A DNA stretch of 64,000 nucleotides. Origin: Mobula hypostoma. Lineage: Eukaryota. The stretch spans positions 158,288,001-158,352,000 of the forward strand of contig NC_086097.1 of assembly GCF_963921235.1 (NCBI RefSeq). Direction: 5' to 3'. Each line of letters opens with the position of its first letter. Position 1 is the stretch's first letter. Below the pieces are notes generated by a model. It was not told where the DNA came from. It did no database searches and saw only the letters and a list, made by a program, of their open reading frames with translations. The position numbers and the translations under genes are program-made. This document shows positions 3,551 to 61,200 of the stretch, in pieces.

Positions 3551-4083
3551 TTTGTGTCTGGACAACTACATATCAATTAAATAAAAGCACTCCAGCAGAG
3601 GTGAGGTTAACAGGTATATTCACATTGTAAGACCATAAGATATAGGAGCAGAAATAGGCCATTCTGCCCATTGAGTCTGATCCGCCATTCAATCACGGGC
3701 TGATCCAATTCTTCCAGTCATTCCCACTCCTCTGCCTTCTTCCCATACCCTTTGATACCCTGGCTAATCAAGAATCTTATCTATCTCTGCCTTAAATGCA
3801 CCCAATGAGTAGGCCTCCACAATCGCTTGTGGCAATAAATTTAACAGATTTACCACATTCTAAGTAAAGTAATTTCTCCACATCTCTGTTCCAAATGTAT
3901 GTCCTTCAATCCTGAAGTCATGCCTTTTTGTCCCAGACTTCCCTACCATGGGAAATAACTTTGCCATATCTAATCTGTTCAGGTTGTAGAGCGAGAGCAA
4001 CAGATCAATGCGCATGGGTAAGTTATCGTTCAATAATTAATGCTAAGAGGAGTCATTATGCTGATAAAGATCCATACATTACA
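3551..4083 (-). repeat. 3' LTR of the Gypsy element, split by a CR1 insertion
   Basis: 3551-3625 and 3984-4083 align by eye with 9938-10105 (ttgtgtctg.acaact..tatcaattaaataa; caacagatcaatg.gcatg.gtaa; tgctaagaggagtc; agatccat.cat). Confidence 0.85.
3630..3983 (-). mobile_element. Short CR1 3' fragment inserted in the LTR
   Basis: Reverse complement reads as the CR1 ORF2 end plus 3' UTR. Flanked by direct repeat TTGTA (3625-3629, 3984-3988). Confidence 0.85.
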
Positions 4084-11569: not shown

Positions 11570-11703
11570 ACAAACACAAGAAAATCTGCAGATGCTGGAA
11601 ATCTGAGCAACACACATGAAATACTGGAGGAGCTCAACCAGCCAGGTAGCATCTATGGAAAAGAGTAAACAGTCGATGTTTTGGACCAAGACCCTTCATC
11701 AGG
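11570..11703 (-). mobile_element. Penelope-like 3' terminal remnant with decayed hammerhead
   Basis: Reverse complement contains cctgatgaagggtcttggtccaaaacatcgact (GAAA changed to AAAA) followed by the agatgct...cagcatctgca tail. Confidence 0.75.
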
Positions 11704-27516: not shown

Positions 27517-30500
27517 GATGGAAGATCAGTGGCCATTGAGTGAGTGGGCCAGTGAAGTAGTGGAGCTTTGAGGCTTTGGCTCGAGAGGCTTCGGCGAGCA
27601 AAGGCTGAGGACGAGCTTGCTCCCAGTGAGGTAAGGCCGGGTAAGTTTCTTTAATTAATTTATTTAACTTAGGAGTTGGTAATGGAGGCAGTAGATAGGG
27701 CAGTCCAGTGCTCCAATTGTAAGATGTGGGAAGTCAGGGACAGCACAATTCTCCCTGATGACTACACCTGCAAAAGGTGCATCCAGCTGCAGCTCCTGTT
27801 AAACTGAGTTAGCGAACTGGAGCTGGAGCTGGATGAACTTCGGATCATTCGGGAGGCAGAGGCGGTAATAGATCAGAGTTTCAGGAGACAGTCACCTCTA
27901 AAAGTCAGGAGACAGGTAACTGGGTGACTGTCAGGAGAGGGAAGGGGAATAGACAGAAAGAGCAGAGCACCCCTGTGGCCATTCCCATCAACAATAAGTA
28001 TACTGTTTTGGATACTGTTGGTGGGGAGGACCTACCAGGGACAAGTTGTAGTGGTCATGTCTCTGGTACCGAGACTGAACTCTCAGCTCAGAGAGGAAGA
28101 AGGGAAAAGAGGAGAGCAGTAGTGATAGGGGATTCGATAGTTAGGGGGACAGATAAGAGGTTCTGTGGGAGAGATTGAGAATCCCGGATGGTCTGTTGCC
28201 TCCCTCATGCCAGTGTCTGCGATATCTCAGATCGAGTTCTCGGTATTCTCAGGAGAGAGGGTGAGCAACCAGATGTTGTGGTCCACGTGGGGACCAATGA
28301 CATAGATAGGAGTAGGGATGAGGTCCTGAAGAAGGAATATAGGGAGTTAGGAAAGAAGTTAAAAAGCAGGACCTCAAGGGTGGTAATCTCGGGATTGCTG
28401 CCTGTGCCACGAGACAGAGAGGGTAGGAACAGGAAGTTATGGCAGATGAATGCATGGCTGAAGAGTTGGTGCAGGGGGCAGGGGTTCAGATTTCTGGATC
28501 ATTGGGATCTCTTCTGGGGAAGGTCTGACCTGTACAAAAAGGACAGGCTGCACCTGAACTGGAAAGGGACCAATATCCTGGTGGGCAGGTTTTATAGAGC
28601 TGTTGGGGAGGGTTTAAACTAGTTTGGCGGAGGGTGTGAATCAGAATGTGAGTGCAGAGATTAGGATAGAAGGACAAGGGCATGGTGCTAGGTGTTCTGA
28701 GTTGGTGAGGAAGGATAGGTAGGGGACAAAACATAAATGTAGCCAGTTAGAGGGCTTGAAATGTGTCTATTTCAATGCTAGGAGTATTAGGAATAAAGGG
28801 GATGAATCTAGAGCATGGATCCGTACGTGGAACTACGATGTTGTGGCCATTACTGAAACTTGGCTGGAGGAAGGGCAGGATTGGCTGATGCAGGTACCGA
28901 GGTTTAGGTGTTTTAAAAGGAATAGGATGGGAGGTAGAAAAGAGGGGGGAGTAGCATCACTGGTCAGGGATAGTATCACGGCTATAGAAAGGGAGGACAC
29001 TGCAGAGGGAGTGTCCACTGAGTCAGTGTGGGTGGAAGTCAGAAATAGGAAGGGATCAATCACTGTGCTGGAAATAGTCTATAGGCCTCCAAATAGGACA
29101 AGGAGCAGATAAGCAGGCAGATTTTAGAATGGTGTAGTTGCAGATATGGGTGATTTCAACTTCCCTCATATTGACTTGCATCTCCTTACTGCAAGGGGGA
29201 TAGATGGGCTGAATTTGTTAGGTGTATTCAAGAAGGATTCCTGACACAGTATGTGGACCGGCTGAGGAGAGGAGAGGCCATACTGGATCCAGTTCTGGGT
29301 AATGAACCTGGTCAGGAGGCAGACATCCTGGTGGGGGAGCATTTTGGTGAAAGTGACCACAACTCCCTTAGCTTCAGCATAGCTATGGAAAAGGATAAAA
29401 ACAGACAAAATGGGAAAGTGCTTAACTGGGAAAGGGCTAACTATGAAGGGATGAGGCAGGAGCTAGTGAGAGTAAATTGGAAACAGATGTTCAAGGGTGA
29501 AAGCACAGAAGTAATGTGGAGGAAGTTTGGGGACCACTTGTGCTGGGTTCAGGATAGGTTTGTCCCACTCAGACAAGGAAAAAATGGGAGGAAAAGGAAA
29601 CTGTGGCTGACGAAACACATGAGGCAACTCGTCAAGAGGAAGAAGGAAGCATATGTTAGATATAAGAAGCAGGAAGCAGGAGGGGCTCATGAGAAATATA
29701 GGGTAGCCAGGAAGTAGTTTAAGAAAGGACGTAGGAGGGCTCAAAGGGGGCATGAGAAGGCCTTGGCATGTAGGATTAAGGAGAACCCCAAGGCATTCTA
29801 TGCGTATGTGGAGAACAGAAGGATGACAAGAATGAATGTGGGGCCGCCAAAGGATAAAGAAGGCAACATGTGCCTGGAGGTGGAGGAGGTTGAATACTTT
29901 GCTTCATTATTCACAAGTGAAAATTATCTTGATCAGGGTGAGGTCGAAATGGAACAGGCCTGTGTGCTGGCCAGTGTGGAGATTAAGGAAGAAGAAGTGT
30001 TGGATCTTCTTAAAAACATCAAGATTGATAAGTCCCCAGGGCCGGACATGATATACCCCAGGTTGCTGTGGGAAGTGAGAGAAGAGATCGCTGGAGCAGT
30101 AGCTATGATCTTTGAATCCTCTTTGGCTGAAGGGGAGGTGCTGGAGGATTGGAGAATGGCAAATGTAGTTCCCTTGTTTAAAAAAGGTAATGGAGAGAAT
30201 CCTGGGAACTATAGACCAGTGAGTCTTATGTTAGTGGTCTCTAAACTATTGCAAAGGATTCTTAAGGATAGGATCTACGAGCATTTGGAGAAGTACAGTC
30301 TACTCAAGGGTAGTCAACATGGCTTTATGAAGAGAAGGTCGTGCCTCACGAGCCTAATTGAGTTTTTTGAAGAGGTAACAAAAGAAATTGATGAGGGTAG
30401 GGCGGTAGATGTGGTCTACATGGATTTTAGCAAGGCATTTGACAAGGTCCCCCATGAGAGACTCATCCAGAAAGTCATGAGGCATGGGATCAGTGGAACC

Positions 30501-31454
30501 TTGGCTGTTTGGATAAAAAAATTGGCTTACAGGAAGAAAGCAGAGGGTAGTAGTGGAAGGAAAGTATTCTGCCTGGAGGTTGGTGACTAGTGGAGTGCCG
30601 CAAGGATTTGCCCTGGGACCCCTGCTCTTTGTGATTTTTATAAATGACCTGGATGAAGAGGCGGAAGGATGGGTGAATAAGTTTGCCGATGACACGAAGA
30701 TTAGAGGAGTTGTGGATGGAGCTGTAGGTTGTCTAAGGTTACAAGAGGATATAGACAGGATACAGAGTTGGGCAGAAAAGTAGCAGATGGAATTAAATCC
30801 GGATAAGTGTGAGGTGATGCATTTCATACCAGAAGGCTGAATACAGGGTTAATAGTCAGTTACTTAAGAGTGTGAACAGATGAACAGAGGGACCTTGGGG
30901 TTCAAATCCATACATCCCTCAAGGTTGCTGCACAGGTTGATAGGATAGTCAAGAAGGCCTATGGGATGCTAGGCTTCATTAATAGGGGGATTGAGTTCAA
31001 GAGTAGAGAGGTCAACTCCACAAATTTCTGGTGAAACCATCCTTCGAGTATTGTGTTCAGTTCTGGTCACCTCATTAGAGGAAGGATGTGGAAGCTATGG
31101 AGAGGGTGCAGAGGAGATTTACCAGGATGTTGCCTGGATTGGAAAACAAGTCTTATGAGGCAAGGTTAGCAGAGCTGGGACTTTTCTCTTTGGAGCGTAG
31201 AAGGATGAGAGGGGACTACAAGATTATGAGAGGCATAGATAGGGTGGATAGCCAATACGTCTTTCCCAGGGCACGAATAGCAAACACCAGGGGGCATATG
31301 TACAAAATTATGGGAGGGAAGTTTAGGGGAGACATCAGGAGTAAGTTTTTTACACAGAGGGCTGTGGGTGCCTGGAATGACTTGCCAGGGATGGTGGTGG
31401 AGGCTAAAACATCAGTGGTACTTAAGAGCCTCTTGGACAGGCACATGGATGAAA
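27517..31454 (+). mobile_element. Near-full-length CR1 LINE: ORF1 (zinc finger/zipper plus SGNH esterase) and ORF2 (APE endonuclease plus RT), inactivated, 3' UTR missing
   Basis: ORF1 from ATG 27682 (CSNC..CKRC; VVIGDSIVRG; HVGTND; DRLHLN) to 28622. ORF2 from ~28756 (YFNARSIRNK, AITETWL, GDFN, SDHN, KSPGPD, GNYRPVSL, DFSKAFDKVPH, KFADDTK) with stops and frameshifts. Confidence 0.96.
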
Positions 31455-32041
31455 GTGCTGTTGTTGCCTTGGTAAGTAAATACATCGCATTTTGCAGGTG
31501 GTAGATACAGCATGCACTTAAAACATGAAGAAAGAAATTGCAGTGATATAGCTCCTTGTGTTGAACAAAGCCACTGGAGAGGTACTGTTTGTAAATATGA
31601 AAAGTAGCCTTTTATTTAATACACCACACACTCACAGATAAGCTGACAGCTTCTTGGAGGGGGAGGAGAGATGGAGGGAGGTAGGGAGAGGAAGAAAAAA
31701 GTCGGCCTGGCCCAGCACTACACAATACACTAAGGATCAAAGACAATTCAGGCTAAAGGCAAAACACAATTCCTTATTTACCATGCTTCCTTTGAACTAC
31801 ATGTAACAGTTTCAAATGCCTGGATCTTCCCACCATCAAACCTCCCTGTTCGCACCTATATTATAAACACCCAAATACACACACGTAATAAATTTATATC
31901 AGCATTGCCTGTTCTCCCAACTAATGTGGTTCATGGTTCTTTGGAACCTACTGTTAAGAGCTGGATTTTAGATTTAATCCACAATTCATATTTGAATCTG
32001 GAGGCTAGTGGCTGAAGTCAGTTATTTACTACTAACCCCAA

Positions 32042-35000
32042 TTGTAGAATCTGCTTGTAAAACCATCCACCACCTGCAAACCATGGCTTCATGTGACCCT
32101 AATTGGGAGGCTAAACAGGTACTACACCTTGCCCGAGGTGATCTGTAGGCTATCGGACGGAAGGAACACTTTACACCTTTTTCTGAGCTATTGCACAGCA
32201 CTGACACTGGAATTTATGGTTGTAAAACTAAAAACACTGGGCAGATGAATCTGCTGATCATTGGCCAGTGTTACCTGTCCAGTATGGACACTGCAACTGA
32301 AGAAGGCAACGGGAAACCACTTCAGTATTCCTCCCTTGTACAATCGTGAACTCAGATCAACTACGGTCTCAGCTCAAAGATGTGAATGGAGGCTTCACCG
32401 AAGGAGCCTCATCCGGTAGAGGATCTCATGTGCCACAGGTGAACCTCGACCGTTATCCAGCGACTGTCGGCAGATTAAAAGCAAAGAAGATCAGACCAGC
32501 AACCTGGACTGTAAGAACCCTTAACCAACCTGGTAAACTAGATAATATCAAACAGGAAATGGAAAGATTAAAAGTCAACATCTTGGGAATGTGCAAGATG
32601 AGGTGGAAAGGAGCTGCTAAAACAAGCTCAGAGGGATATACCATCATTTAATCAGAAGGAGAAATACATGAAAAAGGTGTTGGAATTATGTTAGATGAAG
32701 AACATGCAAAATCAATAAAAGGCTATTGGACAATATCAGATTGAATGTTACTTGTGAAACTACATGCAAAACCTTTTGACGTTTAACATCGTTCAAGTTT
32801 ATGCCCCAATAGCAGACAGCAGTGAAGAAAGCATCGATCAATTTTGAGATGAACTAGAAACAGCATTAAGACAATGTAAAAGCTCCGAAAATACAATTAT
32901 TCAAGGTGACTTCAACACAAAAGTAGGCAAGACCAGGGACGAGGACAATATTGGGCGTTACGGCATAGGTGAGAGAAATGAGAGAAGTGAACGACTAGCT
33001 GCATGGGTCACAGAAAATGATTATATAATTGGTAATACCGTCTTCAAGCAACACCCGAGAAAACTGTGGACATGGAAGAGCCCAGGGGATAACACCAGAA
33101 ACCAGATTGATTACGTGCTTCTAAAGAGAAGGTATAGAAATGCTCTGAAATCATACAAAATATATCCGGGTGCAAACTGCTACAGTGATCACGTACCAAA
33201 AATCAGTGTGATGTACCTGAGACTCAGAAAGCTTAAAAGACCAAGAGTAGAGCCAAACCTAAATTTGGGACTTCTGAGAAAAAACAGTGACATCAAAAAT
33301 GAATTCCAAATAACAGTGAAGAACAAATTCAAGGCTCTAAAAAACATCACTATTATAGAACAGCAGTGGGAAAACCTCAGAGACAGCATAACACAAGCAG
33401 CACAAGAGGTGATTCCCAAACAACAGAAGAAAGCTAAAAAGAAATGGATGACAGAAGAAATTCTGAATCTTATAGAACAAAGAAGAAAATGTAAGGAAAA
33501 CGAAAAAGCCTACGTATCCTTGCATGCACAGATAACAACCAAGTGCAAGGAAGCAAAAGAAAAGTTGCTTAAGGATAAATGTGAGTTAATAGAACAATTG
33601 CAGAAGACCATCAACAGCAAACATATACATGTCGAGATCAAAGAGGTCACGAATCGGAAGAAAAGTGGGGCAACAACGGGATCTATAAAAGCAAAAGACG
33701 GCTCTACAATTATGGGAAAAGGAAAAATAATGCAAAGATGGTCAGTATACATCAAAGACCTATACGACGACAAAGACTGAGAGGACAACTTTGATATTGG
33801 CAATAACAACAAGGGCTCAGCAATACTGAAAGAAGAAGTGAAACATGCTATGAAGAAAATGCGAAAGGGGAAATCATCAGGACTAGATAACATTCTGGTT
33901 GAACTGTATGAAGCGCTGGAAGATTTTGGTGTAGAGAAATTAACAACCTTATTCAATAGAATATACAACAGTGGCAAAGTACCAGAAGATCTTTTAAAGA
34001 TGGTATTCATTGCACTGCCAAAGAAACCAAGTGTAACAGAGTGTGGACAACACAGAACAATTAGTTTAATGAGATACCTCAAAAAAAATTCTACTTGGCA
34101 TCAACATGTTCAGAATAAGAAACAAAATTAAACCAGAGATCAGTGAAGAACAGTATGGCTTTGTCGAAGGCAAGGGAACATCAAATGCTACTTATATTCT
34201 CAGGAATATTATCGAAATGTCAATAGAAGTACAAGAAGACCTATACTTCTGTTTCGTTGACTACACAAAAGCCTTTGACACAGTGAAACACCAAGTCATC
34301 ATGAAAATGCTTAAAGATATTAATATCGACGGAAAAGATCTAAGAATAATCAGGAATCTCTACTGGCAACAAAGTGCAGCAATATGGGTAGACGACGAGA
34401 TTGGTGAATATCAGCCAATAAAGCGAGGAGTCAGACAGGGTTGTGTTCCATCACCAGACCTGTTCTCCCTGTACAGTGAAACATCATGAGAACCATACAA
34501 GACCTACCTGGAATAAGTATAGGAGGATACAACATCAACAACCTCCGCTATGCGGATGATACAGTACTGAGTGCAAACAGTGAAGTAAGTTTACAGAAAC
34601 TAGTATCTACCATCAACACAGAGCGAAAGACTTGGCCTATCCTTAAACAAAAAGAAAACTGAAGTAATGGTAATATCAAAGAAACCTGATATCCCAAACT
34701 GCAGGATTGTAGTGGGAAATGAAATCCTGAAACAAGTTCACAACTTCAAGCACCTTGGATCATGGGTAACATCTGATGGCAAATGCGAAACAGACATAAA
34801 AGCAAGAATAGTAATGGCAAGAACAGCACTTACAGGAATGAGAAACATCCAAACGAACAAGAAAATAGCAATTGACATCCGCTTTAGAACTTCCAGCTGC
34901 TACATTCTTCCTATACTGATGTATGGCTGCGAGTCATGGACCATCACAAATGCAATGGAAAATGAATCAATGCCGCAGAGATGTGGTTCCTCAGAAGAAT

Positions 35001-35330
35001 GCTATGCATATCATATACGGACAGGATAACCAACGAAGAAGTTCTACAGAGAACGAAAGCAAAATGTACATTACTTAAAAAAATCAGAAAACAGCAATCA
35101 AAATTCTTTGGACACATCGTGCGAAGAGAGACATTAGAACATTTAGTTACAACTGGAAAGCTGAAAGGAAAAAGAAGCAGAGGCAGACAGAGAATGAAAA
35201 TGATAGACGGAATAACATCATGGTTAGAAACAGGGGAGGCAACAACTACAATTCGGAGGGTCAGGGACCGTGATGGATGGAGAGACATGATCGCCCACGC
35301 TGAACGGCAAGGCACCTGAATGAATGAATG
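32042..35330 (+). mobile_element. Essentially full-length RTE-clade LINE (single EN+RT ORF, disrupted)
   Basis: TWTVRTL..GKLDNIKQEMERLKVNILG; VQVYAP; GDFN; NQIDY; FVDYTKAFDTV; GVRQGCV.SP.LF; NNLRYADD; YGCESWT; GKRSRGRQR. (TGAA)n tail. TSD ACT(A/G)ACCCCAA (32031-32041, 35331-35341). Confidence 0.95.
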
Positions 35331-35859: not shown

Positions 35860-36124
35860 CAGCACAGTAACATAGTGGTTTGTGCGGTTGCTTTACAGCA
35901 CCAGCGATCACGTGCTGAGTTCGATTCCCGTCATTGTCTGCAAGGAGATAGTACGTTCTCCCTGCAGCTATGTGGGTTTCCTCTGGGTGCTCTGGTTTTG
36001 CCCCACATTCCAAAGATGTACAGGTTAGGGTTGTGGGCATGCTGTATTGCTACTGGAAAGATGTACAGGTTAGGGTTAGTAAGTTGTGTGCATGCTGTAT
36101 TGCTACTGGAAGTGCGGCGACACT
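35860..36124 (+). mobile_element. HE1/V-SINE-like SINE with an internal tandem duplication, split by a LINE
   Basis: gagttcgattccc B-box and gggtttcctctgggtgctctggttt..ccacattccaaagatg. A ~45-bp duplication lies in 36012-36110. The SINE continues after 37299. Confidence 0.8.
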
Positions 36125-37299
36125 CTATGCCCACCTGGACAATCCAGCGAGCACTGTGAGGGTCATGTTTTTTGACTTCTGCAGTGTGTTCAACACCATC
36201 CGCCCTGCTCTGCTGGAGGAGAAGCTGACAGCGATGCAGGTGGATGCTTTCCTGGTGTCATGGATTCTTGATTACCTGACTGGCAGACCACAGTATGTGT
36301 GTTTGCAATACTGTGTGTCCGACAGAGTGATCAGCAGCACTGGGGCTCCACAGGGGACTGTCTTGTCTCCCTTTCTCTTCTCCATTTACACCTTGGACTT
36401 CAACTACTGCACAGAGTCTTGTCATCTTCAGAAGTTTTTTGATGACTCTGCCATAGTTGGATGCATCAGCAAGGGAGATGAGGCTGAGTACAGGGCTACG
36501 GTAGGAAACTTTGTCACATGGTGTGAGCAGAATTACCTGCAGCTTAATGTGAAAAAGACTAAGGAGCTGGTGGTAGACCTGAGGCGAGCTAAGGTACCAG
36601 TGACCCCTGTTTCCATCCAGGGGGTCAGTGTGGACATGGTGGAGGATTGCAAATACCTGGGGATACGAATTGACAATAAACTGGACTGGTCAAAGAACTC
36701 TGAGGCTGTCTACAAGAAGGGTCAGAGCTGTCTCTGTTTCCTGAGGAGACTGAGGTCCTTTAACATCTGCCGGACGATGCTGAGGATGTTCTACGAGTCT
36801 GTGGTGGCCAGTGCTATCATGTTTGCTGTTGTGTGCTGGGGCAACAGGCTGAGGGTGGCAGACACCAACAGAATCAACAAACTCATTCTTAAGGCCAGTG
36901 ATGTTGTGGGGATGGAACTGGACTCTCTGACAGTGGTGTCTGAAAAGAGGCTGCTGTCCAAGTTGCATGCCATCTTGGACAATGTCTCCCATCCACTACA
37001 TAATGGACTGGTTGGGCACAGGAGTACATTCAGCCAGAGACTCATTCCACCAAGATGCAGCACAGAGCATCATAGGAAGTCATTCCTGCCTGTGGCCATC
37101 AAACTTTACAACTCCTCCCTTGGATGGTCGGACACCCTGAGCCAATAGGCTGGTCCTGGACTTATTTCCTGGCATAATTTACATATTATTATTTAACTAT
37201 TTATGGTTTTATTACTATTTAATTATTTATGGTGCAACTGTAACGAAAACCAATTTCCCCCGGGATCAATAAAGCATGACTATTACTACTACTACTACT
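36125..37299 (+). mobile_element. Young 5'-truncated Rex1/Babar-type LINE with uninterrupted RT C-terminal half
   Basis: Open frame to 37148 (VRVMFFDF.S.FNTI, GAPQGTVLSPFLF, KFFDDSAIVG, LNVKKTKELVVD, SFLPVAIKLYN). AATAAA followed by a (TAC)n tail. Confidence 0.93.
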
Positions 37300-38910: not shown

Positions 38911-41798
38911 TTCTCTGTTTGGGAACTATCATATGTGAAGAGAGAATCTGGAAGGCAAGCACGGGCTTTCAGAACTCACAATGAGAGTTTGACTTTTTTA
39001 TTAAACTTGACTTGAGTAGCACACACAATTGTACATCATGGAAGCTTGAAGCAGTGGTCGTTGGTTGAATACTAAACAGAAATTAGTGCAGGCACCCTGA
39101 CAGCTTTTAATCTATGTTCATGAGTTGGATACAGAAAAGTAGCTGTAAATTAACTGTGGATACAGAAGTATCAAAAGTACAGAGGTATAGATAGCATTGA
39201 GGATGAAAATGCAGCTAAAAACTGCAAAAGAATATGCAGCGGTTAAACAACTGGCAAAGCAAATGAATTATAGCATTAATAAATTGTAAGCTATACTTCA
39301 GAAATTGAAAAACTGTGGGACATAAATATATAATGAATGGAACAGAATTAGCACAAAGATACTTAAAAAAAGACAGTACTCATACTGCATGGCAGTTTGA
39401 TTTAGAACCATAATAGAATGCTTGGATATATAGACAGAATAGTAGGATAAAACTAACAAAATGTATTACAACATCTTACAAAGCTCTGCTTAGAATACAG
39501 CAGACTTACAGTTTTGGTCAAAACATCCAAAGAAGATATGTTTGCCTTGGTCAGTGTATTAATCCAATGAAGCTAAAAAAATTGTCAGAATACCATCAAA
39601 ATACAACTGGATGAGATAATGGGAATATTAGGCTGGAGAATTAGACCATTTGTCTCAGTGTGTCTGTGCCTGTCCTGGAATCCTATTAAACCAATCTATT
39701 CTAATATTTATGTCAGTATGGCACAGCTGGCAGCAGTGCTTTGTGTTGGAAGGTTGTAGCAGAAAGTTCGATGCTGGCTTCAGCACATTACCAGGGAACC
39801 CGTTGATTCCACCCTTGCCATAAATCTACTGTTGCAGCCTTGTTTCTAACTGCTATATTGTTAAGTATCTGAGGCTGAACCAAACTCTTTGTAACCTTGG
39901 TATTCTGTTTAACTTTGAATTGAGCTTTAGACTTGGGTTCTCTAGATTACCAAAACTGGGACCTTCAATGAAATATTACAGTTTATCTTTGGTCAAGTCT
40001 CTACCATCCATCACTCCATGAGTAATGCCATATCTACCCTCAGAGTCCAGTTCCTTTAATTAGCGAGAAATGGGGTTGTTTGTGGGATCGCGCCCCATCT
40101 CTAAGCTTCTAGGTTTGTGGCTGCTCGCCTCCTGGAATCTTCTCGGAGACAGCAAAGCGTCAGGTTGTCAGTGATCAAACTGTAGATTACAGTTTCTAAC
40201 AGAAACACACTTAAATTAAAAAGAAGACATAGAAGAAGTGAAAGACACAGTTTTGTGAACTATCTGGAAGATGTCGCCCGAGGTAGTGTTGTTCATTAGT
40301 TCCATCTTGGAGGGGATCTTTTGCAGAGGCAACATCTTTCCAGTCTCTCATTTATAGAGACAAAATTTGTTGACTAGTGTGACTACTCCTTCAAACAATA
40401 TGTAATGTTCCTGTTACATGCAAACTATTTATTCAGCTTTGTTTAACTTGTTCCTCAGGACATGTCCTTACCTTTATTCCCAGACTATGTGGTGCAGCTT
40501 GAGGTGTATTTTGTGCATGACCTATTTGGTTATTCATGACTAAACTTGATGGATCTACGTCAAATGAGGACGTTAGGGTCAGCTCTAGCCCTTGGAATGG
40601 CACTTCATACTTGCACCTTCAAGACAGAAATGAAAATTCTTCAAATTAATTTAGTATTATTCTCTAAAGCACAATTAAAATAAATCTTAATGCTGATAGT
40701 AGTGAGTGGCTACAGTCCTTGGGCTCCATGTAGTTTATGGTTTTCTAATAATCCTTGGAAAGTACCCTGTCAGGATTCACTGAAGAGAAGTGAGAAGTAT
40801 TGTTTGGATGACATCATGTACAATATGTGGTGGCAGATTCAGAGAGTCCTTACTAACAGTAAGCTCTTAACACTGGTGAGTTCTGCAATATTAATCAATG
40901 AAGGATCAGTACAACTCGGCCTGTTGGCAGGAAAAGTCAACTATTTTATCCAGAATGTTTGAGTAATAGCTAATTTTAAGAAAAGATGCTATTCCTTCCC
41001 AAGTTTGGGAGAATTAAGAAACAAATGTTGGTCTACCAAAACACTTAATGGTGTCACGAAAAGCTCATTATAAAATTATATTTACCATTTTTATATTGTG
41101 CAAATGTGCTACTTCACGGAAAGAAGACAGATACACAAGAGAAGATGAGTGCCATCAATGTTGTATCTTCCTATTGCTTACTATTGCTTCCTGGACTGTT
41201 TCATGCTAATATTACCCAGAATTCATTCTCGGTATCATCACGGATTATCAGTAACCACATTTGCATTATTCTGGTTTTGAATGTGCTTCACAGTTATAGA
41301 TGATTCCTTTCTGTGCCACAGATACTGGCAGATGTCAATAGTTATCACAAAGGCACTTCTGCTGAAAATTACCAGATAATACGGTATGTCCAGTCCTGAT
41401 GGTATTCCCCTCCAGAGATGCTGCCTGACTTGCTGAGTTCCTCTAGAAGTTTTGTGCGCTTTGCTCTAGATTTCCAGCATCTGCAGAATATATTGTGTTC
41501 AACATTCTATGAAGAGTTTAAAGAACAATTAGCAATATTCACCAACAATGAGAAATACAGGGTGGTGAGAACAATAATCATGAAAAGACATTTATTCAAA
41601 ATTGATGCAAAAGTGATTGAAATCTTCCAAGTTGTATTAATGTCTTCATCTCTTCCCTTACTATAAGTTGCCTAATCATATTGCAAGTAAAAACTGACAT
41701 CTATCATTCAGTTACTGAGGAAAAACCTTCCTCGACAGAAATGAGATTTTCTTTGATTTCTATTTGGCAGTTCTTAAGTTTTGAATTAATCAGGTGAG

Positions 41799-44880: not shown

Positions 44881-45153
44881 ATGAACAATCCAAAATTCTT
44901 ACGGGCCTCAATCAGTTGGATGCAGAGAGGATATTTTTGGTTGTAGGGTGTAGAGCCAGGCCTCACGTTTACAGGGTGAGAGGTAAGCAATTTAGAACTG
45001 AGATGAGAAGAAAATGGTGAATTTAAAAAAACAATTACAGATGCTGGAAACCTAAAGTCAAAGTACCACAGAGCAGGCAGCAGGCAGCATCTGAGGAAAG
45101 AATTGGAGCTTCTCCTTCCACAGATGCTGCCTAACTCACTGAGTGTTTCCAGT

Positions 45154-45189
45154 AGTCCTGACGAAGGGTCTCGGCCTGAAACGTCGACT
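45154..45189 (+). ncRNA. Minimal type I hammerhead ribozyme motif (intact core)
   Basis: AGUC-CUGACGA-A-GGGUCUCGGCCU-GAAA-CGUC^GACU. Predicted cleavage after 45185. Confidence 0.8.
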
Positions 45190-45251
45190 GTACCTCTTCC
45201 TAGAGATGCTGCCTGGCCTGTTGCGTTCACCAGCAACTTTGATGTGTGTTT
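45155..45251 (+). mobile_element. 97-bp Penelope-like insertion starting at the hammerhead
   Basis: TSD AGTGTTTC(C/T)AGTA (45142-45154, 45252-45264). Inserted in an older Penelope-tail remnant that itself lies in a CR1 end. Confidence 0.85.
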
Positions 45252-46526
45252 AGTGTTTCTAGTATCTGTTTTTTTTTTAAACGAGGGGAAATTTCTTCAC
45301 TCTGGTTGGTAAACCTGTGGAATATTCTATTGTAGTATGCTGCAAAGACCTTGTCATTGATTTCATTCAAGGGTGAATAGATTTTTGGATATAAGGGGAA
45401 TCACGGGGGTGGAACAGTGAGGAAAATGATACTGAGACAGAAGATCAGCACAATCCTGATGAGTGGCAGAACAGGCTGGAAGGATCCAATAATTTACCAC
45501 TGCTTCTAATTTGTATGGTCTTACCTTTGACACTTGTGTCCTCTGATTTCTATTATTTGTATCTCCCATTAATTTGAGCCACTGTACAGATGTTTAGATC
45601 TAAGGTCTTTAGACTAAATAGCTCATTTTCTATCTGCAGAATTTGGAAAGTGTTTCTGACAGACCATGAGCGAGAGGGGTTTAGAGGTGCTATCAGCTCC
45701 AATGTTTATGCTGTGTCTGTTTATCAAATATGAAAGGTTTTATTTTTCATTTACAACCAAAACTGCATCTAAACCAGAACAAATGATATTGTGAAATTGA
45801 AAGCCTTGAATCTTGGCTAGTGCAAGGCACAGCAAGCAGCCCATGTATTTCCCTATGTGGATTGAAAATGAGCAAAGCTAAGCCTCTCCAAATCTTTCAA
45901 GCAATTAAGTCAGAAGAATATCATCTTCAAATGCATGGAAGAATATCATCTTTTTGGTGGCAAAGGGCAAAATAATAGCCAATATAATAAAGGTAAAATA
46001 ATTAAAGAACAAAACTAATTTGGATGATGATCAGAATCAGGTTTATTATCACTGACTTGTATGAAGGGTAACTTTTTGTTCTGTGGCGGCAGTGCCAAGC
46101 AAGACATAAAATTACTATAAATTACAGAAAAGAGTATATAGTGCAAAAATAGGAATAATGAGGTAGTGTTCATGGATCATTCAGAAAACTGATGGTGGAA
46201 GGGAAGAAGAAGCTGTTGCTGAATCATTGAGATTCAGATTCCTACACTACCACCCTGATGCTAAGGCAAAGAATCCCGAATAGCATTGTATCTTGAATCC
46301 ATGTCATTGAAGTGGCTTTGCAGTTACTGATGGAATATTGTGACTGTTGTTGCACATTTTGCGTCATTCATGTGGAAATGGGTGAAGAGAGACAGAAGAA
46401 TATTGACTGGGATGGACTAATGTACATGATTCCTGACTCCTCCCAGAGCTTAAAGGTATTGCATAGTTACATTAGTACTATTTGGCATCTGCGGTTGTCT
46501 ACAGGTGTAGATGTGGTTACGTTTAG

Positions 46527-46735: not shown

Positions 46736-47059
46736 GATAGAATCTGGTTGACTGGTGGATTTTGCGGGGAGAAGGAGCAGTTGATGGTAATGCAGAATAG
46801 ATTATGTGAATTACTGTAAAACTCGTAAAATTGGCTGCTAGATTGATTGGCCTTGGGTTGAGTGGCGCATTTCCATGCAATATGTGAAGTACTTTGGGGA
46901 TATCCTGAAGGTGTTCGGTGCCTTAATAAATAAACAGAAATGCTTTACTGCTTTACTGATGATTAACTGACCTAGAAAAGAAGTCTCCAAATTATTGCAA
47001 CATACATCAAAGTTGCTGGTGAACGCAGCAGGCCAAGCAACATCTATAGGAAGAGGCGC

Positions 47060-47095
47060 AGTCGACGTTTCAGGCCGAGACCCTTCGTCAGGACT
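47060..47095 (-). ncRNA. Minimal hammerhead ribozyme motif in the inverted arm
   Basis: Reverse complement of the motif at 49073-49108. Confidence 0.8.
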
Positions 47096-47410
47096 AACTG
47101 AAGGAAGAGTGAGTAAGGGATTTGAAAGCTGGAGGGGGAGGGGGAGATGCAAAATGATAGGAGAAGACAGGAGGGGGAGGGATAGAGCCGAGAGCTGGAC
47201 AGGTGATAGGCAAAAGGGGATACGAGAGGATCATGGGACAGGAGGTCCGGGAAGAAAGACGGGGGGGGGGTGACCCAGAGGATGGGCAAGAGGTATATTC
47301 AGAGGGACAGAGGGAGAAAAAGGAGAGTGAGAGAAAGAATGTGTGCATAAAAATGAGTAACAGCTGGGGTACGAGGGGGAGGTGGGGCCTAGCGGAAGTT
47401 AGAGAAGTCA

Positions 47411-48778
47411 ATGTTCATGGATGTCCAGTCCTTGTATACTTCCATCCCCCATCAGGAAGGTCTCAAAGCTCTACGCTTCTTTTTGGATTCCAGACCTAAT
47501 CAGTTCCCCTCTACCACCACTCTGCTCCGTCTAGTGGAATTAGTCCTTACTCTTAATAATTTCTCCTTTTGCTTCTCCCATTTCCTCCAAACTAAAGGTG
47601 TAGCTATGGGTACCCGTATGGGTCCTAGCTATGCCTGCCTTTTTGTTGGGTTTGTGGAACAATCTATGTTCCGTGCCTATTCTGGTATCTGTCCCCCACT
47701 TTTCCTTCGCTATATCGACGACTGCATTGGCGCTGCTTCCTGCACGCATGCAGAACTCGTTGACTTTATTAACTTTGCCTCCAACTTTCACCCTGCCCTC
47801 AAGTTTACCTGGTCCATTTCCGACACCTCCCTCCCCTTTCTAGATCTTTCTGTCTCTGTCTCTGGAGACAGCTTATCCACTGATGTCTACTATAAGCCTA
47901 CTGACTCTCACAGCTATCTGGACTATTCCTCTTCTCACCCTGTCTCTTGCAAAAACGCCATCCCCTTCTCGCAATTCCTCCGTCTCCGCCGCATCTGCTC
48001 TCAGGATGAGGCTTTTCATTCTAGGACGAGGGAGATGTCTTCATTTTTGAAAGAAAGGGGCTTCCCTTCCTCCACTATCAACTCTGCTCTTAAACGCATC
48101 TCCTCCATTTCACGTACATCTGCTCTCACTCCATCCTCCCACCACCCCACTAGGAATAGGGTTCCCCTGGTCCTCACCTACCACCCCACCAGCCTCCGGG
48201 TCCAACATATTATTCTCCGTAACTTCCGCCACCTCCAACGGGATCCCACCACTAAGCACATCTTTCCCTCCCCCCCTCTCTCTGCATTCCGCAGGGATCG
48301 CTCCCTACACAACTCCCTTGTCCATTCGTCCCCCCCATCCCTCCCCACTGATCTCCCTCCTGGCACTTATCCGTGTAAGCGGAACAAGTGCTACACATGC
48401 CCTTACACTTCCTCCCTCACCACCATTCAGGGCCCCAAACAGTCCTTCCAGGTGAGGCATCACTTCACCTGTGAGTCGACTGGGGTGATATACTGCGTCC
48501 GGTGCTCCCGATGTGGCCTTTTATATATTGGTGAGACCCGACGCAGACTGGGAGACCGCTTTGCTGAACATCTACGCTCTGTCCGCCAGAGAAAGCAGGA
48601 TCTCCCAGTGGCCACACATTTTAATTCCACATCCCATTCCCATTCTGACATGTCTATCCATAGCCTCCTCTACTGTAAAGATGAAGCCACACTCAGGTTG
48701 GAGGAACAACACCTTATATTCCGTCTGGGTAGCCTCCAACCTGATGGCATGAACATTGACTTCTCTAACTTCCGCTAG
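47411..48778 (+). CDS. Penelope-type reverse transcriptase (N-terminally truncated) plus GIY-YIG endonuclease, uninterrupted 455 aa
   Basis: DVQSLYTSIP, QTKGVAMGTRMGPSYACLF, LRYIDD, LPFLDL, YYKPTD; Cys-rich linker; GVIYCVRCSRCGLLYIGETRRRLGDRFAEH; E..L..LQPDGMN. Confidence 0.93.
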   Translation: MFMDVQSLYTSIPHQEGLKALRFFLDSRPNQFPSTTTLLRLVELVLTLNNFSFCFSHFLQTKGVAMGTRMGPSYACLFVGFVEQSMFRAYSGICPPLFLRYIDDCIGAASCTHAELVDFINFASNFHPALKFTWSISDTSLPFLDLSVSVSGDSLSTDVYYKPTDSHSYLDYSSSHPVSCKNAIPFSQFLRLRRICSQDEAFHSRTREMSSFLKERGFPSSTINSALKRISSISRTSALTPSSHHPTRNRVPLVLTYHPTSLRVQHIILRNFRHLQRDPTTKHIFPSPPLSAFRRDRSLHNSLVHSSPPSLPTDLPPGTYPCKRNKCYTCPYTSSLTTIQGPKQSFQVRHHFTCESTGVIYCVRCSRCGLLYIGETRRRLGDRFAEHLRSVRQRKQDLPVATHFNSTSHSHSDMSIHSLLYCKDEATLRLEEQHLIFRLGSLQPDGMNIDFSNFR

Positions 48779-49072
48779 GCCCCACCTCCCCCTCGTACCC
48801 CAGCTGTTACTCATTTTTATGCACACATTCTTTCTCTCACTCTCCTTTTTCTCCCTCTGTCCCTCTGAATATACCTCTTGCCCATCCTCTGGATACCCCC
48901 CCCCCCCGTCTTTCTCCCTAGGCCTCCTGTCCCATGATCCTCTCGTATCCCCTTTTGCCTATCACCTGTCCAGCTCTCGGCTCTATCCCTCCCCCTCCTG
49001 TCTTCTCCTATCATTTTGCATCTCCCCCTCCCCCTCCAGCTTTCAAATCCCTTACTCACTCTTCCTTCAGTT

Positions 49073-49108
49073 AGTCCTGACGAAGGGTCTCGGCCTGAAA
49101 CGTCGACT
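49073..49108 (+). ncRNA. Minimal type I hammerhead ribozyme motif in the Penelope 3' region
   Basis: Stem I AGUC/GACU, core CUGACGA...GAAA, short stem II, palindromic ACGU stem III. Predicted cleavage after C49104. Confidence 0.82.
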
Positions 49109-52100
49109 GCGCCTCTTCCTATAGATGCTGCTTGGCCTGCTGCGTTCACCAGCAACTTTGATGTATGTTGCTTGAATTTCCAGCATCTGCAGAATTCCTG
49201 TTGTCTCCAAATTATTAATGTCTCTGTGATACTGTGTAAGTTCCTTCACCAAATTGACTGTGGCTTATAAAACAGGTGGCTCATTACTACTTTCTTGAAG
49301 CTGATTTGCAATGGCTAATAAATTTGGCCTTGCCAGCAATGCCTATTATGTAAATAACTAGGGTCCAGGGTAATTATAAAGAGGGACAGCACTGAAAGAG
49401 GTCCGCCCATACCTCTGTATTTGCACTGATCATCAACCATCATCTTTTACCCTATTACTATTTAACCTGTTTTAACCTTCCCACATTTCCAACAATTCCT
49501 CAGATACTGGAAGATAGTCAGCCAGTTAAACAAGCAAAATACATTATTAAACAAAATCATTTACAGAGGGACATCCAAGTTTCCCATAAGCATTTTGCAG
49601 TATATACCAATGACCCCATTACCTCCACCTGGAGTCAATTGATGTGGTACAAAGAGACTCTAAATGGAATCACATTTAATATTATTGGCATATGTCGTGC
49701 AACTTGTTAACTTTACAGCAGCAGCACAATGAAATGCATGATAAACAGAGAGAGAAAAAATGTTATATGAGGTATATATATGGCTATTAGTTACGTTAAA
49801 ATAAGTCGTGCAAAAAAAACGAAACATAGAAGTAGTGAGGTGGTGTTCATGGGTTCAATGTCCAGTTAGAAATCGGATGACAGAGGGGAAAGAGCTGTTC
49901 CTGAATCGCTGAGTAAGTGCTTTCAGGCTTCTGTACCTCCTTCTTGGTGGTAACAATGTCAAGAAGGCATGTCTTGGGTTGGGGAGGGGGGAATCCTTAA
50001 TGATGGACACCACCTTCCTAAGGCACCACTCCTCGTCTTAGATGCTACATGATGGAGCTGACTAATTTTACAAGTTTCTTCAACTTATTTCAATCTTGTG
50101 CAGTAGCCCCCCCCCCCCACCCCCCATACCAAATGATGGTGCAGCCAGTCAGGATGCTCTCCACGGTACAAATTATTCTTTATTCACATTCAACCTGCTA
50201 ATGTAGGCATGTGTGCCATTGACTTCTAACAACCTCACTTTTGATTTACTCTTCTTAGATTAAATCAGAAGACCATGGCTAGAACTTAAATGCTTCCTGT
50301 GTCCCAGGCTTATTTTGAGCTGGGGTGGTAGTCTTCCATGAGTTCTGAACTCGGGGGGGGGGGCCTACTTTTTGCATTATCTGTTCCCAGATTATTACTC
50401 CTACTGTCACTGACAGACTTTATTTTACACATTTTCTTCCATCTGCTTAAGGCTTTCATTCTTCTTATCCCTGCTCTGGGTTCTCACAGCTCTCAAGGTG
50501 TATATTCAAACTTCACTCATTTGACAAGACACGTCTGTTTCCTTTTCTCTTTTGCCATCTTTAATTTAGACTTAGGCCCAATCATGGTTGATTATGCTGA
50601 ACGATTAATTGATGTTTCAGAATTAGGTAAATAAGGACTCATCTGCATTCTAAAGATTGAAGGTCTAAAGATTAGCTTTATTTGTCAGTGTTCATTGAAA
50701 CATACAGCCAAAATGTGTCACTTGCATCAAATCAAAACACTGAGGGTTCTGCTGGGCAGCCTGCGAGTGTTGCAGCTCTTATGGCACCAACCAAGTATGC
50801 CTGTATCTCACTAAGCCAAGCTATACACCATTGGGGCATCTGAGGAAAGTGGAGGAAAGCCACACAGTCACAGGGAAAATATACAAACTCATTACAGACA
50901 GTGGCAGGAATCAAACCTAAATGTTACAGCTGGTCCTGTACAGCTAACTGCTACGCTACTATGCTGTCCCAGTCCAAAGAGTTCTTATCAATTGCGAGAA
51001 AACTTTAATTATAGAGGTGCCTGTTTGTGCTTTGCAATTCACCAGACTATCCTTTTCCAAACACATTTGTCTGCTCGTTTCCTACTCAGGACTCAGCGCA
51101 TCAGGTCTGCTCTGTCATTTAATTATGGTTGAATTTTTTTTTTCAATCCCATTCTCCCTGAAATCTTCAACTGAATTATTTCTCAAAAACCTATTAATCT
51201 CTGCCTTAAATACACCAGTGACTTGCTTCCATGGCCCATTGTGGCAATGAACTCCACAGCTTTACCACCCACTGCCCGAAGAAATTCCTCAGCTCAGTTT
51301 TAAAGTGATGAAAGTCATCTGTGGGTGAAGAGAATTGTTGATGTTCCAGGTCAAAACTGTGCATCAGGACTTGCTCCAAATTCTAGCATCTGTACTCTTT
51401 AATGTCTACAATAAACTGAAAGCTGTGAAACAGGAATTTAATAGGTGAAGACAGCTGCTTACCAAAAACAGTAACTGGGTTGACTTGAACGAACTGAGTT
51501 GACTGATTTTACATCGTGGCATCGCACCTCGATATCTCATTTGGACATGACGTTTCAATGTGGAGTGAGGTGATTTCAGTATGCAGTTCGCTTGTTCAGC
51601 TATAATACTCAACAAGCAACATGCTTAATGAAATCACTTCATTTAATCTTGAAGTAGTTATGTGTTAAGTATGATTCGAAGTATGACTGAAAGTACTATC
51701 ATTGAGATATGAAGATGACAAACATGAAAGAAGACACCAATGCCTTGAATTTCAACCTTTGGTAGCACCACACTTGCTATTGTTAACAAATGCTCATTGT
51801 ACTTGCTTTCCAGAATTTGTTCCAATTTGGTAAAATTTAGGGCACTATTTGGTATGTTCATTGCTGCCAATAATGGATGAATTTCAAAGCACAAGATTAG
51901 TGTGAAAGCGGAGCTGCTGCCTCTCAGCTCCAGCAGACCAGCTCAGTCCTGACTTTTGGTGCTGTGTCTGTGGGATCTATCTATTCTTAAAAGTTCTTCT
52001 TGGATGCTTTCTTCTATGCTTATGACACTCTCTGACTATTCTAAACTAACTTGGCTGGGGTCCAGAAAGCATGGTAGTGTTGAAATTGGTTTATTATTGC

Positions 52101-58200: not shown

Positions 58201-61200
58201 AAGTGCCCATCTTAACACGTAGGGAATCTGTTCTTAGAGCTGGAGCAGTCTCAGAGAGCCAAATGGCCTAATATTTCTTTGGTCTCACGACCTTTTACAT
58301 TCAGAACTTAAAACAGCTAGTCAGCATGATACTGTTTTTCAAATCCATCACGTGCTTTACAGGTTCTTGGTTGGAACTATCCATGATTAAGTGATTCAGA
58401 CCTTATCAAGTACAACACTGCAGCATCATGACATAATCTGTTTTGTGTAGCGTATTGTCTGAAGTGTTTGAAAATATTGGATAGTCACCCTGCATGTCAC
58501 AGTTTAATGAACCTCATCTATGCCTTCATGACTTGCCAAACAGAGATCAACTCATTTTGTATTCTAAAATGCAAATTAGCTTCATTGGAGTCTGATTATT
58601 CCACACAATCAGTCCCTTGGTGAGGTCAAGATCACCAACTGATAGTATCAAAATAATACTCAGTGTTTACCAAATTACCTGTAAATCAGATTGTGCAGCA
58701 GCATGCTTGTGTGAATCAAGTGATCCAATTTAATTCAGAAAATAATAATTTAAATCCATGAATACTTGAAAACTCTGTAATTTTTGGAGTTTGAGGGGTG
58801 GATTATGTATATGTCTGATGGGCTAATGCATAGAGGGCTTGACAAGTATATTGGCATCATGTAGTACACACCTGGATGGCACTTCGAATCAAGCATAAAT
58901 AGACTGGAGTGTGTGCATTTGCCCATGCAAAAGCCAGCTTTCATAAAACCCATTTTGACAATTGAAAGGAAACACCCTGAGCATTCCCCAGCCTGATTCT
59001 GGAAACTAAACTTAGGAAGGTCCATTTAAGGGCAAAGATTTGCTTTCTTTTAGAACATACACACATCAATTGTCTCCATTCCAACTGCCAAGTCTATCCT
59101 TTGACTACTGGTCCTACCTTATCTGCCTACCCAGTGTTACTTACCCTTATCCCTCAACTATTCAGGCATTCTTCAAGAAGTAGACATAGCTTATCCCCTG
59201 ACTGCCAACCTTATGACCACCAATTCTACCATCAGGATCCCTGGCAGCTGATGTTTACCCGAACCCACCCAGTATTTGTCCTCCAAACCCACCCAGCAAC
59301 TGTCCTCCAATCATATCTTTTGTCCATCACCCTCCCACCTGTCCAGGAGTTACCTGAAGACCTCTTGGCTGTGATTGCTCAGCTAAACATGTTAAGAGTT
59401 GTCTTTGAATATGCAAGACCTGTTCCATAAGGGACTTGTGCACCATTAAATGCATCAGTGGTGAGCCCCTAACAAACTATCCAAACAATTTCTCATTAGA
59501 GTCCTGAAGAGTTTCTGGGCAACTCTCTCTTCAACAGAGGGGAGAGTGAACCAAGAACAAGATGTACCATTGATTAAAAGGAGAACAAAAAGCATTGCTT
59601 TCGCCAATTAAGGCTTTCTTTGGGTGCCTGTATAATGCCAAGGGAAGCGGCCAATGAGAAAGTGTTGCATCTGTTTAGATATATGCCACATAAATGTTAT
59701 CAAGTCAAATAAAGACCAGTTGAAGTATCCAGATGGTGCTGTGTTCATCAGTAATGATCCTTCCCTATAACTAATTTACAATTTAAATGTATTAAAACGC
59801 CTGCCTAATCCAATTACACCACTGTACATGCTCATTAATCTTCCCCTTTTCTGGTAATTTTACAAAGTATAATTTGCAAAGTGATCTTGCAACGCATTAG
59901 AAGAATTGTAATATCTAAAGATGTGCCACACCATCAGCATTCACAACAAACAATTAGATTATCTACAGGTGTTTCTGCAACTACTTCACTGAATGCAGTT
60001 TCTTGTGTTGTGCAGTAATCAGTGTTGAATATAAATAAGCTGTATGGGGGAGCTGATCTCTGAAAGACTGTAGTTTCTTTACTTTCTAATTACTCGTTTT
60101 TTGTTTCAATGCCTTGCCAGATGTGTGTAATCTTTTAGTAATTACTCTTTGCCTTACATAGTTTTAAATACTAGCAAAATGGCACCAAACACTTAAACAA
60201 CCATTATCAAATGTCCTTCCCACCACCTCCTCAACTAAGTAAGATTAAAGAGCTAGTATGTCTTAGATATAATATAAAAATAATTAGTGACATCACATTG
60301 AATAGAACAAAGCATGGACAATTTATCACTTATTCTTTTATCTTGGGAAGGTCTTTTTTGTTCTTCAAGAATGTGCTTAGAGTTAGCAACACCTCATATT
60401 CCGTTTGGGTAATCAATGTTGGGTAACCTCCAGAATTGTTTTCTCCAGCTTCTGGTGATTTCTTCATCCTCCCTCTTCTCTTCTTTACCATTTCCTTTTT
60501 TCTCTTACTCCTTTTCATCTCCTCATCTGCCTAACACCACTCTGTGGTACACCTCCTCCTACCCTTTCTCTCATGGTCTGCTCTCCTTTCCTATCAGATT
60601 CTTTCTCCGTCAGCCCTTTATTTGTCAGCTCTCAGCTTCTCACTTCATTTCCCTGCCAACCAACCCACCTTTCCCCTCACCTATCACCTTCCAGCTTGTA
60701 CTCCTTCTCCTCTCCCTACCTTCTTATTCTGGCTTCATCCTCCTTACTTTCCATGAAGGATAAAGTACCTTGGCCCAAAATGTTCCTTTCTGTAGATGCT
60801 GCCTGACCTGCTAAGTTCCTCCAGCATCTTGTGTGTTTTACTCTGGATTTCCAAGGTCTGAAGAATCTTTTGTGTTTATGATATGCTTAGATTTATGTGT
60901 TTCATTTAAGAGAAAGGGTGTCTTTGACTTGTACTTTAGAATTGGTCTTGGATTTATACAGGCTGCACAGATGATCTTTGGTGAAGGATCCCAGGATTCT
61001 GGAAATTGAAGACTTATCTCTTGGGCTCCTCAGCTAGAAAAGCCGGGTGAAATTCCATTGGATCACTGGGGAAAAGTGTGTCACTCAGCCATTATGTTTT
61101 TGAATACTTTTATTCATTAGTCTTAAATATGTTAAAAATTGGCAGGGGTGGGTGCTGAATGATCCTTGAAATGCTAAAAGGGGTACTAAAAGCTCCATCT

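Follow-up and report, generated by a model that had tools for sequence, protein, structure and literature searches.

The 36-nt motif at 49073-49108(+) in the 64,000-nt stretch of the Mobula hypostoma genome analysed here (the window) is most probably a minimal hammerhead ribozyme in the pseudo-LTR of an abundant Neptune-type Penelope-like element (PLE), which would cut slowly, with assistance and as a dimer, in the transcripts of source elements (probability roughly 0.8). The motif has a hammerhead sequence and covarying stems, it lies after a reverse transcriptase (RT)-endonuclease (EN) ORF, and it is surrounded by features characteristic of a PLE insertion: an inverted arm, a tail and target-site duplications. 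The original prediction of a minimal type I hammerhead preserved in PLE pseudo-LTRs at several stages of decay agrees with its position, its covariation and a held-out model.

Motif copies and the insertions that carry them

A motif search of the 64-kb window recovered all seven predicted sites at their positions. Four were intact, with U or C at position 11.1 [22047(-), 45154(+), 47060(-) and 49073(+)], and a structural descriptor allowing 0-1 extra base and a loop III of 0-6 nt matched exactly these four copies in the window. The same 36-mer occurs at 49073-49108(+), 45154-45189(+) and 47060-47095(-), and a single change separates it from 22047-22082(-) (U11.1>C) and from 14925-14960(+) (G16.2>A). 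The core mutations predicted for 23058(+) and 11671(-) were found as described: 23058-23093(+) carries four changes (C3>U, A6>U, a loop C>U and 11.1>G), and 11671-11706(-) carries nine, including G12>A, ACAU and loss of the 5' strand of stem I. An additional, eighth relic was located at 51336-51371(-), with 11 differences from the 36-mer. Intact motifs therefore make up 4/8 motif-bearing copies, and the core is also intact in a fifth. No match at ≤13 mismatches appeared in any of 20 dinucleotide-block shuffles of the window, and the structural descriptor gave 0 loop-less matches on 30 shuffles. All copies are embedded in longer homologous PLE end sequence, and the recurrence of the motif is the result of transposition. 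The predicted cut site, after C49104, was correctly placed. The parts of the 49073 copy and the more decayed relatives are as follows.

49073..49108 (+): minimal type I hammerhead, by sequence, descriptor and covariance model
49073-76/49105-08 (+): stem I of this copy, plus a U-G pair
49077-83 (+): core, followed by the extra A at 49084
49085-88/49093-96 (+): stem II, followed by GAAA at 49097-100
49100-103 (+): palindromic ACGU, with the predicted cut after C49104
11574..11706 (-): copy of an older subfamily, with the full tail and a decayed motif (11671-11706)
41395..41498 (+): relic comprising the motif's 5' half and the tail
51316..51373 (-): heavily decayed motif relic, weak profile match (E 0.58)
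60752..60875 (+): relic, decayed motif plus tail

A pyrimidine tract precedes the AG at the start of stem I (49050-49074(+)), in diverged subfamilies as well, and this AG represents a candidate 3' splice site; it resembles the intron end in Drosophila virilis Penelope and is unconserved in most metagenomic relatives. The run contigs, which cannot reveal splicing, contained no splice joint.

The insertions around the better-preserved copies were delimited as follows.

47417..48778 (+): 5'-truncated PLE ORF with the C-terminal part of RT, a CX4CxxC linker and GIY-YIG with CCHH, uninterrupted as far as its stop codon
48779..49202 (+): 3' pseudo-LTR with the hammerhead; its optional tail of ~31 nt (49172-49202) is missing from the inverted arm
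46997..47419 (-): inverted 5'-truncated arm with intact motif 47060-47095, 98.1% identity over 424 nt
46983..46996 (+) and 49203-49216: left and right copies of a 14-bp target-site duplication
21986..23194: second inverted insertion, older, with 86.9% identity between its arms, motifs 22047-22082(-) and 23058-23093(+)
21973-21985 and 23195-23207: 13-bp duplication of the older inverted insertion, 12/13 identical
14893..15023 (+): short 3' fragment, solo, bearing motif 14925-14960 (G16.2>A)
14882-14892 and 15024-15034: 11-bp duplication of the 14925 fragment
45154..45251 (+): solo fragment whose 5' end is the motif, inside an older PLE tail
45142-45154 and 45252-45264: 13-bp duplication of the 45154 fragment, 12/13 identical

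The ORF remnant at 47417-48778 comprises 454 codons, and the motif at 49073 starts 295 nt past its stop. Its Pfam matches to RVT_1 and GIY-YIG (E about 2e-4) lie below the curated cut-offs. Among 971 homologues, the best named ones were from Mobula hypostoma (94%) and Hypanus (77-88%), followed by Rhincodon (71%), Chiloscyllium (57-70%) and then invertebrates (about 45-52%), a ranking that makes a myliobatiform ray the probable host. In the homologue alignment, C364, C367 and H386 of the CCHH residues were invariant and H402 nearly invariant; the linker cysteines between RT and EN are C321, C326 and C329 (CX4CxxC). A CX2-5CxxC linker at this place defines Neptune and is shared with Nematis, according to the available portion of PMC8557442, and the element would accordingly be labelled a Neptune-type EN+ PLE on the basis of this linker and its vertebrate host. 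A predicted protein of Stegostoma (P0011) spans the 3' region of the element, and its C-terminal peptide resembles the translated motif, a hint that the same motif may occur in sharks.

The segment 46997-49202 is a single insertion, in which the inverted arm is joined to the truncated ORF and pseudo-LTR via CATG microhomology. In both inverted insertions the inverted arm ends about 30-45 nt before the end of the forward arm, the solo copies 14925 and 45154 both end at the short 3' end, and contigs derived from sequencing reads have loose ends at 49172, 49199 and 49204, around the tail. An inverted copy and a 30-40-bp tail at one end have been described for PLEs (available text of PMC8557442), and two internal reverse-transcription start sites account for the PLE tail in the accessible part of PMC11167929. 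Sequence is retained on both flanks of the cut site in every window copy, indicating that the templates were uncut at that motif.

Several further features were noted around these insertions. At 45036-45264, two older PLE pieces that consist of tail only and form an inverted pair enclose a young fragment with motif and tail, and the solo pieces 45154, 11671 and 51336 start at, or close to, the 5' boundary of stem I. The conserved tail 3' of the motif (49123-49190(+)) forms a second depth peak and contains a predicted hairpin around the short 3' end, with a non-significant fold z-score of -1.2. A full-length U6 snRNA retrocopy with a poly(A) tail lies at 22588-22694(-) (Rfam, 106.9 bits), flanked by a 9-bp duplication (22567-22575 and 22695-22703) at the endonuclease end of the older PLE insertion, and was probably mobilised by a LINE. 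Broken LINE copies at 28179-31504, 32848-35029 and 35952-37148 contain RT, AP-endonuclease or esterase-like ORF1 domains (Pfam); a broken LINE copy at 674-2402 and a fragment resembling LTR-retrotransposon RT at 6218-6736(-) were judged by eye. One host exon was identified in the window:

16809..16893 (+): first coding exon of tsnare1, 97% identity over the matched stretch to a Mobula protein

No later tsnare1 exons were found in the window, the intron after this exon appears to extend beyond the window end, and the motif copies downstream of it are probably intronic.

Hammerhead identity and covariation among relatives

To assess the fold beyond the near-identical window copies, the best 80 of at least 539 related metagenomic stretches were scanned with the core alone. 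This gave 35 core-only matches, and 17 of them have the two stems and the palindrome as well, compared with a mean of 2.4 core matches and 0 complete motifs in shuffles. We aligned 20 of the 35 matches: 21 had the extra A and G10.1, three near-duplicate pairs in L002/L003 and L011 were reduced, and about 13 other core matches, mostly within ORFs, were excluded. Because the rows were selected by a core match with the extra A and G10.1, these two columns do not count as independent evidence. Across the 20 non-ray rows, 88.2% of cells were paired, two-sided changes occurred in 9/11 pairs, and the covariation score was 0.676, compared to 0.186 for shuffled alignments (0/500) and 0.09-0.17 for slid ones; the outermost stem I pair formed in just 9/20 relatives. 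Compensatory changes support stems I and II across relatives; within the ray copies the variation in the stems is limited to a one-sided U/C at 11.1. The palindromic 15.2-16.2 positions, without loop III, read ACGU in 5/7 listed window copies and form a standard pair in 19/20 relatives, A-U and U-A versions included. Relatives with a protein identity of about 40-55% keep the catalytic nucleotides and the NUH triplet, and their stems covary.

We then used covariance models to score the window and the related loci. A first model (R1) contained two ray copies, and its window scores were set aside in favour of those of a second model (R2), built from non-ray metagenomic rows only, the E-values of which are rough. 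The top R2 matches in the window were 22047, 45154, 14925, 47060 and 49073, with E-values of 1.1e-8 to 1.9e-6, and the decayed copies scored E 0.037 (11671) and E 0.7 (23058). In the loci, all 37 R1 matches at E<0.01 lay in pseudo-LTR-type positions, 17 of them held out; relative to the ORF match, 24 were sense-downstream, 5 sense-upstream and 8 antisense-upstream. A downstream model match was present in only 20/47 eligible loci (11/47 by the strict descriptor), distributed as 20/32 closer relatives and 0/15 mostly distant ones. One locus (L011) looks full-length, with two pseudo-LTR motifs about 3 kb apart (940-985 and 4006-4051), and in two others a motif lies about 3 kb upstream of where the ORF ends (L025, 315-358; L026, 330-373).

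The proposed check against Rfam came back negative: no hammerhead family matched at E≤10, either in the whole window or in 49030-49220, from which we infer that the Rfam hammerhead models miss loop-less motifs. Fold z-scores of motif and tail were not significant (0.05 to -1.18). In viral contigs, the motif pattern had 0 exact matches, and 0/45 candidate stretches there encode a relative.

Two details of the original prediction were revised. The extra A after CUGANGA had been taken as a trait of this lineage, whereas the published consensus, CUGANGAH in the available text of PMC4209133, already includes it; the nucleotide after A9 is A in 20/20 aligned relatives, the rows having been chosen with the extra A. 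The ACAU at 14925(+) was confirmed in location and change, but its reading as a stem III variant was not, since ACAU would place two C-A mismatches in a homodimer and G16.2>A looks like the other CpG losses; we therefore rejected a functional variant, and the decay of a CpG, which breaks the palindrome, best accounts for ACAU at both 14925 and 11671. One coelacanth example in the available part of the published list has a CAU motif (PMC4209133). At the 10.1-11.1 pair, G-C occurs at 22047 and in 20-31% of run depth, and a G-U wobble elsewhere; 11.1 is U, not the usual C, in 3/4 intact window copies.

Sequence variation, proposed cleavage and competing explanations

To examine variation among genomic copies, 4 of 24 listed sequencing runs were compared over 49020-49215: X1 and X5, which are DNA, and X9 and X15, which are putative RNA. 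Run depth is summed contig depth and not a copy number. Depth peaked over the motif and over the tail, and loose ends accumulated at 49073-49075 and 49107-49109, both edges of stem I, indicating that diverged subfamilies share the motif from edge to edge. In X1, 12/36 motif positions were listed as varying at ≥2%, a tally that leaves some differences uncounted and one C>T place unlisted; nine were CpG-type, and the rest were two loop II bases and U/C at 11.1. U11.1>C reached 20/31% (X1/X5) and preserves the pair. At one CpG, C7>U stood at 15.4/16.1% versus 5.9/6.5% for G8>A (X1/X5), and most CpGs decayed near-symmetrically (9.1/11.1, 7.4/8.7 and 6.9/8.2% in X1). Core CpGs decayed in genomic copies at rates like those of loop CpGs. 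These values suggest that source elements may carry U7 yet not A8 and that inserted copies decay freely; selection probably acts on the ribozyme in source elements, and the window copies are probably inert. CpG decay was reduced in the putative RNA runs, and we rejected core selection as its cause because loop and tail CpGs were affected equally; the reduction may reflect rare variants lost in contigs.

The same four runs differed in A>G changes, with 10 and 9 places in X9 and X15 compared with 2 and 5 in the DNA runs, and no matching rise in T>C places (4, 4, 4 and 5). A>G sites raised in the putative RNA runs were 49054, 49073, 49121, 49123 and 49151, with 49121 at 7.0% in X15 versus 1.2% in X5, both from one sample. 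The RNA status of X9 and X15 is guessed, X15 is flagged as probably DNA, and copy-specific alleles are possible. These differences hint at sense-strand A-to-I (ADAR) editing of PLE RNA, with the first A of stem I among the sites (about 3%), and Penelope RNA is heavily edited in a lizard according to the available part of PMC5625713.

With regard to mechanism, a single motif lacking loop III would be unable to close stem III. In source elements with tandem pseudo-LTRs on one transcript, two motifs would pair via the ACGU palindrome, probably aided by the element's protein, and a slow cut after C17 would trim the precursor RNA. Two start sites for reverse transcription, separated by about 31 nt, would lie 3' of the motif, so that each 5'-truncated insertion would carry an uncut motif as a passenger, and inserted copies would be unselected and decay chiefly at CpGs. 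In the available accounts, a Schistosoma monomer was inactive and dimers were weakly active (PMC4209133), a review cites Lunse et al. for dimer cleavage (PMC6765202), and the anole motif needs the element's protein for cleavage and is dispensable for insertion in vitro (PMC11167929). The lowest-energy monomer fold conceals the core (-11.0 versus -7.0 kcal/mol), with G5-G8 paired with C15.2-C17, and the active dimer was computed at -11.5 versus -30.3 kcal/mol for an inactive dimer, using a nearest-neighbour model that ignores tertiary contacts in the core. None of the listed loose ends, and no pile-up of ends, fell at 49104/49105, in a listing that leaves out 822 loose-end rows and for contigs that cannot show RNA ends.

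Within the 64-kb window there was no tandem, head-to-tail or full-length ray element, and none of the window copies has a partner nearby on its own strand. Inverted insertions hold four of the copies, and the antisense arm carrying 47060 also matches 45154. Since the close pairs are inverted and not tandem, read-through RNA would form long duplexes masking the sense motif, and cleavage by window copies is unlikely. These copies are probably inert, either for want of a close tandem partner or masked by an antisense arm.

A hammerhead-derived motif could also be kept for a function other than catalysis, for instance as a signal for folding or protein binding beside the RT start sites, with no useful cleavage in vivo. 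Such a function would be in line with the disfavoured active fold in the energy model, with the retention of both flanks of the cut site in all window copies, with catalytic mutants that leave insertion unaffected and the lack of RNA reads starting or ending at the cut in the available part of PMC11167929, and with Naiads that proliferate without canonical hammerheads, as far as the accessible text of PMC8557442 goes. However, the relatives keep the catalytic nucleotides and the NUH triplet while their stems covary, and G8 is constrained relative to N7 in the genomic runs, and we regard this explanation as unlikely.

Two explanations give the dispersed copies a role in host transcripts. Very unlikely, in our estimate, is a joint reading in which rays hold on the order of 100,000+ intact minimal hammerheads, gated by the host through splicing and ADAR, with some cutting pre-mRNA: a 3' splice site at the stem I AG would remodel the ribozyme upon splicing, like that of Drosophila Penelope, activity would be damped by ADAR editing of sense PLE RNA at sites such as the first A of stem I, and some intronic copies would cut host pre-mRNA via long-range or trans dimers. 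Highly improbable is that dispersed intact copies are themselves active in host transcripts, at long range or in trans, and cut intronic pre-mRNA such as that of tsnare1. In favour of such activity, a distance of 3.9 kb separates the identical same-strand motifs 45154 and 49073 on the tsnare1 strand, two putative RNA runs contain the motif, and its density is high (7 listed copies in 64 kb). Between these two motifs, however, lies the antisense arm 46997-47419, which matches both and would form a duplex of about 424 bp with the right arm; core CpGs decay like loop CpGs, and even close dimers have low activity in vitro in the available text of PMC4209133.

Chance likeness, a repeat end that happens to hold CUGANGA and GAAA, would account for the lack of an Rfam hammerhead match, the motif fold z-score of about 0 and near-identical window copies that by themselves cannot reveal covariation, but it is refuted in practice by the covariation and the held-out model, together with the conserved position and the match to the published consensus.

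Relation to known hammerheads and significance

The preferred reading, a PLE minimal hammerhead that would act in source transcripts, places the ray motif in a known RNA class, described in 2014, whose published consensus already has the extra nucleotide and the palindrome. As set out in the available text of Cervera and de la Pena 2014 (PMC4209133), the PLE minimal hammerheads (min-HHRs) share with the ray motif the CUGANGAH core with one unpaired nucleotide before stem II, a short stem I, GAAA-CG-UH without loop III, a location in the pseudo-LTR, many solo truncated copies and a second copy on the opposite strand. The Acropora digitifera Neptune motif in that work has the same core as the ray motif, a 4-bp stem II starting with GGG and the same CGUC. 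The ray motif differs from the PLE min-HHRs in having G-U instead of G-C at 10.1-11.1 in most copies. None of the 56 motifs in the available version of the published min-HHR list (PMC4209133) is from a shark or ray.

Likeness and difference were also found with the Poseidon element PAc of the green anole (Frangieh et al. 2024, PMC11167929, as far as its text was available). PAc likewise has a pseudo-LTR hammerhead upstream of two favoured 3' ends that define an optional tail, and its inserted RNA is uncut, as in the ray element. The Neptune-type cysteine linker is a feature of the ray element, unlike PAc; the PAc ORF begins within stem II, whereas the ray ORF is 5'-truncated in the window; and protein-assisted cleavage, demonstrated for PAc, is a predicted step in the ray element. 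Topology and catalytic core are common to the ray motif, canonical type I hammerheads and animal non-LTR retrozymes (available part of PMC7229834), but the ray motif has no loop III and a stem I of 4-5 bp, compared with 6 bp and tertiary loops in the canonical type I and retrozyme forms. Unlike retrozymes, it forms no tandem array in the window and is linked to an RT-endonuclease ORF.

In terms of abundance, extrapolation from the density in this window, if it is typical, gives the ray about 60,000 intact motifs per Gb, compared with reports of about 4,000 and 9,000 minimal hammerheads per genome in coelacanth and Xenopus. The accessible sources also describe a coral with thousands of minimal motifs (PMC7229834), a PLE expansion in whale shark introns (10.1101/443036) and hammerhead retrozymes in one chondrichthyan (bioRxiv 10.64898/2026.07.22.740005). 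A literature search for Penelope ribozymes in sharks and rays found none: a review on the ribozyme mentions a shark only as its namesake, and no paper on elasmobranch repeats concerned ribozymes by its title. The supplements of the 2026 preprint and the alignments of Lunse et al. may list some.

Neither the chemistry nor the architecture of the ray motif is new. With it, a known RNA class extends to a ray lineage, where it is seemingly very abundant, and the unequal decay of N7 and G8 within one CpG is a straightforward indication of selection on source elements and not on inserted copies. The ray copies thereby offer a population-scale data set on whether PLE hammerheads are needed for transposition.
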